Source: Bacillota bacterium
GTDB taxonomy: Bacteria; Bacillota_I; Bacilli_A; RF39; UBA660
NCBI GenBank assembly: GCA_015059375.1
Contig: SVAN01000002.1
Location: forward strand, 27,328 to 91,327
Length of the DNA stretch: 64,000 nt
Reading direction: 5' to 3'
Below, piece after piece: positions 33,585 to 35,795 of this stretch. Both the position numbers and the translations under genes were made by a program. How positions within the stretch are numbered: the first letter of the stretch is position 1; each line of letters starts with the position of its first letter. Under the pieces are notes generated by a model, which worked only from the letters and a program-made list of their open reading frames with translations, ran no database searches and had not been told where the DNA came from.

Positions 33585-33953
33585 TTATATAACAAAGCTT
33601 ATAAAAACTAATAATATAAAGGTTAACATTAATGATATCGCATAATACTGTATAAACTTTACATCACTATCAGTTAAATATTTACCATTTTCTTTTTTTA
33701 ATATTTTTATTTCGCTTCCAACTTTTAGCGGTTTATAATTTAATGTACCACCTTTAAGAATTTCTTTTTTTTTGCCATTTTCTGTAAATTCTATAATCGG
33801 ATGTAAATATCGCCCAATTCTTTTGTATTTTATAAGAGTACCTTTAATTGTATAATTAGCTTCTAAGTTCTTTTTTTGCTTAAGACCTACATAATACAAA
33901 ACGATACCGATTATCAAAATTATAATTGCCATAATTATTAATGTTAAGTTCAT
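33585..33953 (-). CDS. small membrane protein (DUF3592-like architecture)
   Basis: I prefer the ATG at 33953 (RBS aaggaag) over the track start at 34001. TM helix, beta-rich core, then two TM helices. Confidence 0.5.
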   Translation of the reverse strand: MNLTLIIMAIIILIIGIVLYYVGLKQKKNLEANYTIKGTLIKYKRIGRYLHPIIEFTENGKKKEILKGGTLNYKPLKVGSEIKILKKENGKYLTDSDVKFIQYYAISLMLTFILLVFISFVI

Positions 33954-34041
33954 GATACACTTCCTTATATTTATAAAAAAAACTTTGTACTTTCGTACCA
34001 AGTCTTAGATTAACGAACTCATTGGTTCGACTAAATCTCAA

Positions 34042-34115
34042 TGGCAGGGGCGGAGAGAATCGAACTCCCATCAAAAGTTTTGGAGACTCCTATGCTACCA
34101 TTATACCACGCCCCT
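34042..34115 (-). tRNA. tRNA-Trp (anticodon CCA)
   Basis: AGGGGCG...anticodon loop CTCCAAA...GGGAGTTCGATTCTCTC...CGCCCCT-G-CCA, folded by hand. Confidence 0.95.
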
Positions 34116-34209
34116 AAGCGCAATAAAATTATAACACATCTTTTATCAAATATGCAATAAAATCATTAAAAATCGTGAATAATGTTAATATACAAGCATA
34201 TAGTATAAT

Positions 34210-34756
34210 GTAAAAGCGCTGGACATAAGTAACAAAATATGATAACATTTCTACGTGGTGCATTATGCTAGTCACAAACACCATTTGAAGACGGGGCTAA
34301 AAATCCGTCAATTGATTTCGACACTTTGTATGTTTGCTTCTTCGGCCCAAGTTGGGGTGAACATATAATTTTAAATATTAGGGAGAGCGTAATGGCATAC
34401 GACTTTATCCCCTATTATTAGATATCAGAAACTAAAAAATCATGTTGTGCGTGGTTATTAGGGATTAACAAATAAGATAAGTTATGAAATTTTAACTGCA
34501 AAAGCAAATAAGAATGATTAGTTTGTGTCAGAGAAAATCTCTAGCGTGTAGCTTACCATAAGGATTGAAGTACGGACTAATGTGGCAATCGAGTAATCAT
34601 TAAGGCGACTAATGATTATATTCCATAAAGGAGAAATCGCCTAAGGGTAACCAAAGGAAGGTATATAGAGAAACTCAACTCGACCAAAGCCGTAAAATTA
34701 ATTTATGGTAAACCATAGGCTTTAGGCGTTATAACTATGTTTATAACGTTTTTTTA
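34210..34756 (+). ncRNA. large structured non-coding RNA, best guess OLE RNA
   Basis: About 540 nt with no ORF and visibly higher GC than its surroundings. Many local helices (gacgg/ccgtc, ccaa-g-ttgg, agaga/tctct, ggcga/tcgcc, taatcatta/taatgatta). TATAAT at 34204-34209. Ends in cgttataa/ttataacg plus T7. An OapA-like gene follows immediately downstream. Confidence 0.5.
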
Positions 34757-34816
34757 TTGATTAGACAAAAAAAATAAACTATGTTATTATTACTATCGCA
34801 TATTACAGGAGGATAT

Positions 34817-35335
34817 ATGAAAAAGAACACTTGGATTTGCCAAATATTTCTATGGACATTCATTTTATCAATCACATTCAGTTATATAACTAATATTATA
34901 TCAACAAATTCTACAACCATTGTTACTGCCATTATAATTCTTATAGTTATAGCAGTTGGGATTCTTTTCGACATGCTTGGAGCCAGTTGTTTAACTAGTA
35001 AGGAGTCAACATTTCATGCAATGGGTGCAAAAAAAATTAAAGGCGCAAAGCAAGCAATCAAATTAATACGTAACAACGTCAAAGTATCTAGCGTATGTAA
35101 CGATATTGTTGGTGATATTTGTGGAATTATTTCTGGCGGTCTTGGCGCAGTACTAGCAATTGATTTAGCCAATAATTTCGAAATTAATTTAGCCTTTATA
35201 ACAATGATTACTTCAGCAGTTATTTCTGCTTTAACCGTTGGTGGTAAAGCAATGTTTAAAAAAGTAGCAATCAAAAATTCCGATAAAATTTTATTTAGAA
35301 TTAGCAAAATAATTTGTTTTTTCAAAAGAAAATAA
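34817..35335 (+). CDS. DUF21/CNNM-transmembrane-domain-like 4-TM protein, candidate OLE-associated protein OapA
   Basis: Start moved to the ATG after RBS aggagg. KGAKQAIKLIRNN...CNDIVGDICG resembles the DUF21 helix-loop and contains DxxxD. No CBS or CorC domains. Confidence 0.5.
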   Translation: MKKNTWICQIFLWTFILSITFSYITNIISTNSTTIVTAIIILIVIAVGILFDMLGASCLTSKESTFHAMGAKKIKGAKQAIKLIRNNVKVSSVCNDIVGDICGIISGGLGAVLAIDLANNFEINLAFITMITSAVISALTVGGKAMFKKVAIKNSDKILFRISKIICFFKRK

Positions 35336-35375: not shown

Positions 35376-35795
35376 ATGATTGTTTCTTATACCACTAAAG
35401 ACGTGGAACTCTTAGCAAGGATTATTAGAGCAGAAGCTTTAGCAGAAGGTGATTTAGGCATGCTAATGGTCGGGAATGTAGTCGTTAATCGTGTTTTAGC
35501 ACATTGTTTAACATTTAAAAACATCAATAACATATATGATGCTATTTATCAAAAAAATCAATTTGTTGGTACCCAAAGTTCATTATTCCAAGCTAGTCCT
35601 ACAGCCAAAGAAAAAGAATTAGCTAAAAGGGTTCTCGCTGGAGAATATTATTATCCAGCTACTAATTCACTGTGGTTCTACGCTCCAGGAGCCGCCTCAT
35701 GTAAATCCACTTGGTATAGTCAAAATCTAGCAGGTTCCTATAAAAATCATTGCTTCTATAAACCGGATCCTGGCATTTGTAATACAATTCATTAA
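35376..35795 (+). CDS. SleB/CwlJ-family cell wall (spore cortex) hydrolase domain protein
   Basis: LLARIIRAEALAEGDLGMLMVGNVVVNRV block typical of the Hydrolase_2 family. Confidence 0.8.
   Translation: MIVSYTTKDVELLARIIRAEALAEGDLGMLMVGNVVVNRVLAHCLTFKNINNIYDAIYQKNQFVGTQSSLFQASPTAKEKELAKRVLAGEYYYPATNSLWFYAPGAASCKSTWYSQNLAGSYKNHCFYKPDPGICNTIH

Follow-up and report, generated by a model that had tools for sequence, protein, structure and literature searches.

Full-length OLE RNAs, for which our reference was the Rfam family RF01071 together with the Halalkalibacterium halodurans, Clostridium acetobutylicum and C. botulinum structures, are about 600 nt long and possess the helices P7 and P8 and a long P9. 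The hosts expected for OLE are anaerobic or extremophilic Bacillota. Cryo-EM models of the dimer contain four contacts, three of which are made by the P4 loop and the P5.1/P6.1 loops and the fourth by a kiss of palindromic P9 loops, with no dimer contact contributed by P7 or P8 (PMC12265935). The kink-turn of the protein OapC (YbxF; Pfam PF01248) has been mapped to the joiners flanking P5 (PMC9723947), and the H. halodurans site of OapB, a small beta-barrel (KOW) protein, consists of a bulge, then 2 bp, then a GNRA loop, the tetraloop of which makes, in addition, a tertiary contact with P12.2 within the RNA (PMC7936274). Two reduced forms of OLE have been described (Fernando & Breaker, 2024; mSphere, PMC11332333). 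According to that report, variant 1 belongs mostly to the TANB77 clade, has a shorter P7-P9 region and often lacks the OapB site, and variant 2, from which P7 and P8 are entirely absent, is common in the uncultured gut order RF39; it assigns variant 2 to hosts from RF39 or from comparable gut clades with reduced genomes, in which OapB and OapC are largely missing.

The 64,000-nt stretch of DNA analysed here (the window) had been annotated in an earlier note, made from the sequence alone, as carrying a large structured RNA, probably OLE, directly followed by the gene for its protein partner OapA. Our best explanation of the locus, to which we assign a probability of about 95 %, is that positions 34254-34755 of the plus strand encode a shortened OLE RNA of the variant 2 type and that the next gene encodes the membrane partner OapA. 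The ole/oapA pair of the window is a real and ordinary member of an already published sub-type.

Identity of the RNA

The Rfam OLE model matches positions 34239-34732 of the plus strand with 206.8 bits (E = 1.1e-56), the gathering score of RF01071 being 50, and the alignment spans the entire model (1-616 of 616). The earlier assignment to OLE is thereby borne out from end to end, and the RNA belongs to the family as an intact copy with a conserved structure. Two other properties that had first drawn attention to the region also hold. The longest stop-free run in 34239-34732 is 49 codons across the six frames, each of which contains 9-15 stops, and no ORF of at least 40 aa was found to lie wholly within the interval, in agreement with the claim that the RNA is devoid of open frames. 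Its GC content of 0.354 exceeds both the 0.282 of the window and the roughly 0.23 of the intergenic DNA on either side, and places it at the 95th percentile among 494-nt windows, so that it is indeed richer in GC than its surroundings.

Anatomy of the shortened RNA

Stem coordinates (all on the plus strand) were obtained by mapping the RNAalifold consensus of short relatives onto the window. Helices P1 (34254-34259/34712-34717), P2 (34264-34271/34541-34548) and P3/P3.1 (34273-34285/34513-34527) are each supported by the consensus and by covariation; the CUAG palindromes of P2, mapped elsewhere as an OapA site, are invariant among the short relatives, and a CACAAAC/GUUUGUG pairing involving the 5' strands of this region (34254-34285) can be read straight from the sequence. 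The P4 hairpin (34290-34309) has a covarying stem and an A-rich loop, CUAAAAAU, that is invariant in 24 relatives. Covarying stems and invariant loop bases are likewise found in P5/P5.1 (34326-34368; loop GCCCA) and P6/P6.1 (34374-34419; loop AAUGGCAU), and by analogy with the structurally characterized OLEs the P5.1 and P6.1 loops are the predicted kissing-loop partners.

P7 and P8 are replaced by a linker (34420-34444) that leaves the region about 100 nt smaller than in full-length OLEs and whose positions 34438-34442 form the 3' strand of a 5-bp helix with 34313-34317. In the Rfam alignment, the model segments of 44 and 36 nt that correspond to P7 and P8 are reduced to 8 and 7 nt in the window, the 39 model nt of the P9 apex to 6 nt, and the hairpin after P10 (model 424-435) from 12 to 2 nt; it is because of these deletions that the OLE match is only 494 nt long. 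The truncated P9 (34445-34507) keeps its proximal part, GUGCGUGG...GGGAU/UGAAA...UGCAAAAGC, and the distal arch is a 4-bp hairpin without a GGCC-type palindromic loop. Beyond it lies the P10 hairpin GAGAAAAUCUC (34529-34541), recognized in the Rfam alignment, by RNAalifold and by comparison with full-length RNAs. The 3' domain, P12-P15 (34555-34709), is supported by pairs and covariation and contains both GNRA hairpins, namely P13 (34596-34616), in which the GCGA tetraloop (34605-34608) sits on two closing pairs above a bulged A34602, and P14.1, with a GUAA tetraloop at 34647-34650. As predicted from its sequence, the geometry of P13 is exactly that of the H. halodurans OapB site. Among the window's 15 small free-standing ORFs, inspection by eye revealed none that looked OapB- or L7Ae-like.

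Two functional elements of full-length OLEs appear to be missing. The P9 apex of aligned full-length relatives carries GGCC, GUAC or GCGC palindromes, and the P9 tips of the short forms are hypervariable in length, with no conserved palindrome and, in the relative L012, no tip at all; we therefore infer that the P9-P9 kissing contact has been lost from the window RNA. Full-length OLEs have GAUGAAG and CUGGGAG as the joiners on either side of P5, where the window has CGACAC and AUAUAAU. The 3' joiner of the window thus contains no G whatsoever, which makes tandem sheared G-A pairs impossible, and the OapC kink-turn has presumably been lost as well, in agreement with the remark in PMC11332333 that these clades are largely without OapC.

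Taken stem by stem, the window RNA shares with full-length OLEs the helices P1-P6, the proximal P9, P10 and P12-P15, the A-rich P4 loop, the two P5.1/P6.1 loop sequences, the two GNRA hairpins and an oapA gene directly downstream. It is shorter than they are (about 500 as against 600 nt) and has neither P7 nor P8, no distal P9 arch or palindromic P9 loop, no small hairpin beyond P10 and no kink-turn G-A motifs. With about 15 nt in place of P7 and P8 and 6 nt in place of the P9 tip, it is a variant and not the full-length form. With P7 and P8 entirely absent, the other highly conserved nucleotides retained, oapA as the next gene and a low-GC, probably gut Bacilli-type genome as its host, the RNA fits the published variant 2 and shows no essential difference from it. 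The accessible text of PMC11332333 does not state the losses of the distal P9 with its palindrome, of the post-P10 hairpin and of the kink-turn G-A motifs, nor the retention of the GNRA-plus-bulge OapB site in P13, nor a separate promoter and terminator for ole, all of which characterize the RNA described here. The short class is itself not uniform, given the additional losses in L012, L016 and L017; these 464-nt OLEs, the shortest that we encountered, have lost the P13 GNRA loop, i.e. the OapB site, and the entire P9 tip, both of which are kept in the window.

The downstream membrane protein

The oapA gene (34817-35335, plus strand) encodes a protein of 172 aa, the length of which equals that of its homologues. 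Its ATG at 34817 is preceded by an AGGAGG ribosome-binding site (34807-34812, plus strand) and lies 62 nt past the ole terminator, so that oapA is directly downstream of the RNA. The AF2 model (pLDDT 83, pTM 0.72) contains four long helices (residues 5-31, 34-60, 87-121 and 125-153) besides short amphipathic ones, and is that of a small protein with four transmembrane helices, as the earlier note had read from the sequence. The same note had recognized a resemblance to the CNNM membrane domain without CBS domains. Indeed, the protein matches the Pfam CNNM model with 26 bits, below the cut-off of 28.4, and OapA proteins typically score below threshold for CNNM in a published histogram; the best Foldseek matches in the PDB are to the archaeal CNNM protein MtCorB (7M1T and 7M1U, TM 0.51-0.61), the second of these being the match reported for H. 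halodurans OapA. A PDB sequence search returned nothing at E<=10, so that the link to CorB comes from the fold comparison only, and no NCBIfam model matches the protein. The fold is accordingly CNNM-like, and the protein, like other OapAs, is without the CBS and CorC domains of MpfA.

The DxxxD motif singled out by the earlier note (NDIVGD) belongs to the sequence NDIVGDICG, in which D96 and D100 are invariant in 26 homologues; the basic stretch KKIKGAKQAIKLIRNNVK is also conserved. Alignment with the OapA of Clostridium oceanicum (188 aa) covers the full length of the protein with 43 % identity (E = 3e-46), and the motif NDxVGDICG is common to both. The C. oceanicum gene stands in the classic OLE context, after an OLE of 605 nt and 540 bits and before dxs, and the alignment supports the proposed identity of the protein. 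We found 1215 homologues at E<=0.001 in a first search, mostly from gut MAGs labelled 'Bacilli bacterium', and 733 representative clusters at E<=1e-10, the closest homologues being labelled as Bacilli or Bacillota MAGs. The 172-aa protein is an OapA orthologue with a CNNM/CorB-like fold and a DxxxD motif, and has in common with known OapAs the four transmembrane helices, the DxxxD, the basic loop, the weak CNNM match and the MtCorB-like fold. Its N-terminus is shorter than that of clostridial OapAs, the whole protein having 172 as against 188 aa.

Conservation among relatives

A scan of species-representative genomes yielded 80 loci, 40 of which were run through Rfam. An OLE lies directly upstream of the OapA homologue in 38 of these 40, and the RNAs fall into a short class of 464-519 nt (209-252 bits) and a full-length class of 594-676 nt (355-540 bits). 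Members of the latter include Clostridium oceanicum, Anaerosolibacter and Tissierellaceae, and hosts of the former are Bacilli MAGs, 'Mycoplasma sp. CAG:472', UBA6448 and Candidatus Coprovivens (L045), the last of which has been assigned to the order RF39 (PMC8035907); a direct literature link of CAG:472 and UBA6448 to RF39 was not found. Two loci, L033 and L048, contain an OapA homologue and no OLE match at E<=0.01 within their 6.5 kb, so that ole may be further away or OapA may have been kept without OLE.

Twenty-four short OLEs were aligned, giving a mean column identity of 72 % with about 165 invariant columns. The RNAalifold consensus of these sequences has 121 pairs, 74 of them with compensatory double changes, and 114 of the 121 can form in the window RNA, which therefore has a multi-stem structure backed by covariation; the short complementary segments with which the earlier note had found the region to be packed are true helices. 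Only three positions of the window depart from columns that are at least 90 % conserved, and all three lie on compensating sides of pairs: C34292 and G34307 jointly form a C-G pair in P4 in place of U-A, and C34362 pairs with G34332. These compensated departures, along with the pairs retained, point to purifying selection on the structure rather than decay.

The question of decay deserves consideration, as the stretch might in principle be what deletions in a reduced genome have left of an OLE gene, no longer functional. Full-length OLEs exceed it by about 120 nt, its 206.8 bits are the lowest score in the short class and among the scanned relatives, and its -10 box is imperfect. However, the same deletions recur in at least 26 loci, with OapA proteins that have drifted apart to 45-78 % identity, the alignment retains its invariant columns and covarying pairs, the rare substitutions in the window are compensated, the promoter and terminator are conserved, oapA is intact, and the RNAs of relatives are present in metatranscriptomes. 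We consider it very improbable that the window carries a remnant, and the conserved, shortened OLE remains the preferred reading.

Transcription of ole and oapA

The predicted ole promoter (34220-34248, plus strand) comprises a -35 box TGGACA (34220-34225), a 17-nt spacer and an extended -10 box TGaTAACAT (34240-34248), and scores 9 of 12 consensus positions, with the TG, in a consensus scan. All 24 of the relatives examined have a -35 box, a 17-nt spacer and a TGnTATAAT that ends 8-11 nt before the conserved GUGGUGCA, and in these same 24 the promoter layout stands at a matching distance from GTGGTGCA; the -10 box of the window (TAACAT) is weaker than theirs. Since the conserved promoter corresponds to 34220-34248, the RNA would start near 34254, probably at 34253-34255, and would be about 500 nt in length (predicted transcript ~34254 to ~34755). 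The earlier note had the RNA start after a TATAAT box and estimated its length at about 540 nt. Such a box exists, at 34204-34209, and we rejected it as the ole promoter as the relatives align with 34220-34248 instead; the promoter had been placed some 35 nt too far upstream, and the longer estimate falls with it. The same TATAAT overlaps the -35 box of a promoter-like site on the minus strand (34187-34214; TTTACA, 16-nt spacer, TATATT; 10 of 12) that faces the neighbouring tRNA-Trp gene.

At its other end, the RNA runs into an intrinsic terminator (34724-34755, plus strand) with a stem of 8-11 bp, a 6-nt loop and U7. The stem is formed by CGTTATAA (34727-34734) with TTATAACG (34741-34748), is extendable to 11 pairs and is followed by T7 at 34749-34755, so that the 8-bp stem and T7 with which the earlier note had ended the RNA are where it had seen them; the fold has a free energy of -8.5 kcal/mol (z = -2.3). 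Equivalent terminators are present in ten relatives (L001, L006, L008, L015, L018, L019, L021, L030, L042 and L054). Beyond the terminator, a second predicted promoter (34762-34790, plus strand; TAGACA at 34762-34767 and TGtTATTAT at 34782-34790; 10 of 12, with the TG) precedes the oapA ribosome-binding site, and the arrangement TAGACA...TGGTATTAT recurs in L001, which has the matching layout of terminator followed by oapA promoter. A terminator-plus-promoter layout is found in about 11 of 26 short-form loci, and in about 15 of the 26 the two genes abut, with 10-29 nt between ole and the oapA ribosome-binding site. Judged by these signals, ole is predicted to have its own promoter and intrinsic terminator, and oapA its own promoter after that terminator. 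Metatranscriptome contigs of relatives that are 85-95 % alike, compared with positions 33900-35300, cover 34264-34716 and leave the promoter region and oapA uncovered. These contigs are sequences of relatives, carry no strand information and may reflect DNA carry-over, and are consistent, if weakly, with a discrete RNA; among the RNA runs searched none contained the exact window sequence, the best of them matching 4-6 % of sampled words, as relatives would.

It is in this light that a cis-acting role for the region has to be judged, i.e. that of an oapA leader (riboswitch or attenuator) for which the terminator serves as the expression platform. The region is co-directional with oapA, a terminator stands between the two, and in the abutting short-form loci mentioned above ole reaches the oapA ribosome-binding site free of any terminator, all of which a leader would explain. 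However, the OLE RNA to which the region is homologous accumulates stably and in abundance and acts within a ribonucleoprotein particle (PMC12265935), oapA in the window has its own promoter after the terminator, the RNA contigs end before oapA, and in one relative a 409-aa gene separates ole from oapA. We regard a leader as less probable still than a decaying remnant, and favour a free-standing OLE RNA. In the relative in question (L008:515-3519), a short OLE that ends in a terminator of its own and the oapA homologue are some 2 kb apart, the intervening ORF (1157-2386) being secreted-looking, and this arrangement implies that ole and oapA can be physically uncoupled.

A possible minimized particle

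Any account of how the RNA might work here has to be drawn from studies of H. halodurans and from Clostridium cryo-EM structures, i.e. from distant species. By analogy with these, ole would be transcribed as a stand-alone RNA of about 500 nt, which may dimerize via the retained A-rich P4 loop and the P5.1/P6.1 kissing loops. OapA would bind this RNA near the P2 CUAG palindromes and near P4 and so hold it at the membrane, and the particle may help the cell under stress, for instance from excess Mg2+, cold, alcohols or poor carbon sources, possibly through control by OapA of a CNNM-like divalent-cation pathway. The particle of this lineage would be a slimmed one, without P7 and P8, without the P9-P9 kiss and without the OapC kink-turn, and would retain the hairpin with bulge and GNRA loop to which OapB binds in H. 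halodurans.

Going one step further, it is possible, though in our opinion rather doubtful, that the lineage carries a naturally minimized OLE particle consisting of an RNA of about 500 nt and OapA, with a dimer held by P4 and P5.1/P6.1 only and with a promoter-terminator unit of its own, uncoupled from oapA. Were this so, neither the OapC kink-turn nor a P9-P9 kiss would be part of the working particle, and the P13-type hairpin would either bind a still-encoded OapB or be a pure RNA tertiary contact.

Rfam's standard model detects the window copy easily, and OLE RNA, OapA and the RF39-type short variant have all been published already, so that the locus adds little new knowledge. Its modest value is that of a natural 'core' OLE with clear limits, complete with promoter, terminator and stem anatomy, in which P7, P8, the distal P9, the post-P10 hairpin and the kink-turn are seen to be dispensable and P1-P6, the proximal P9, P10 and P12-P15 with both GNRA loops to be under selection. 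Such a core could help in the design of constructs for structural work or for OapA-binding studies.

Neighbouring genes

Full-length OLEs can stand in an isoprenoid/dxs operon, as in L080, and this context is absent here; the ole gene of the window is a stand-alone transcription unit beside a tRNA gene and a cell-wall hydrolase gene. The divergent neighbour of ole is tRNA-Trp(CCA) (34042-34115, minus strand), the adjacency of which the earlier note had correctly reported, and in L001, L004, L005, L012, L016 and L017 ole is likewise preceded by a tRNA gene on the minus strand; the adjacency reflects lineage-specific synteny, and the tRNA gene is outside the OLE system. ROOL RNAs are often found near tRNAs, as the earlier note pointed out in naming that class as an alternative, and this adjacency is all that would favour assigning the RNA to another large ornate class (ROOL, GOLLD, HEARO or raiA), an idea with a negligible chance of being right given that a permissive Rfam scan of 33900-34900 at E<=10 gave no match to any of the four and returned OLE (E = 1e-58), tRNA and four noise matches. 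OLE is thus the sole significant family in that interval besides tRNA, and alone among the five that the note had proposed to scan for it gives a match.

On the far side of the tRNA gene, an ORF of 138 aa (33585-34001, minus strand) encodes a protein with a membrane helix at its N-terminus and a C-terminal part that is rich in lysine and probably in beta structure. Its only Pfam match is a faint one to DUF3185, and a tblastn search with it against the fetched loci gave no match, so that no counterpart was seen next to ole in them. Faecal and animal-gut metagenomes contain DNA that is identical to the window or nearly so, and the DNA runs X1-X5 match 63-91 % of sampled words. Judging by the labels of relatives, the host is probably a gut bacterium of the RF39 type.

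Downstream of oapA, after a gap of 40 nt, lies a gene for a SleB-like cell-wall hydrolase (Hydrolase_2; 35376-35795, plus strand; Pfam PF07486, 68 bits). A SleB-like gene is linked to ole/oapA in some relatives too, being found downstream of oapA in L001-L005 and upstream of ole, beside the tRNA, in L012, L016 and L017. If the lineage does possess a minimized particle, this linkage would fit the proposal that domain 2 of OLE reaches toward the cell wall; both arrangements are limited to the closest relatives of the window.
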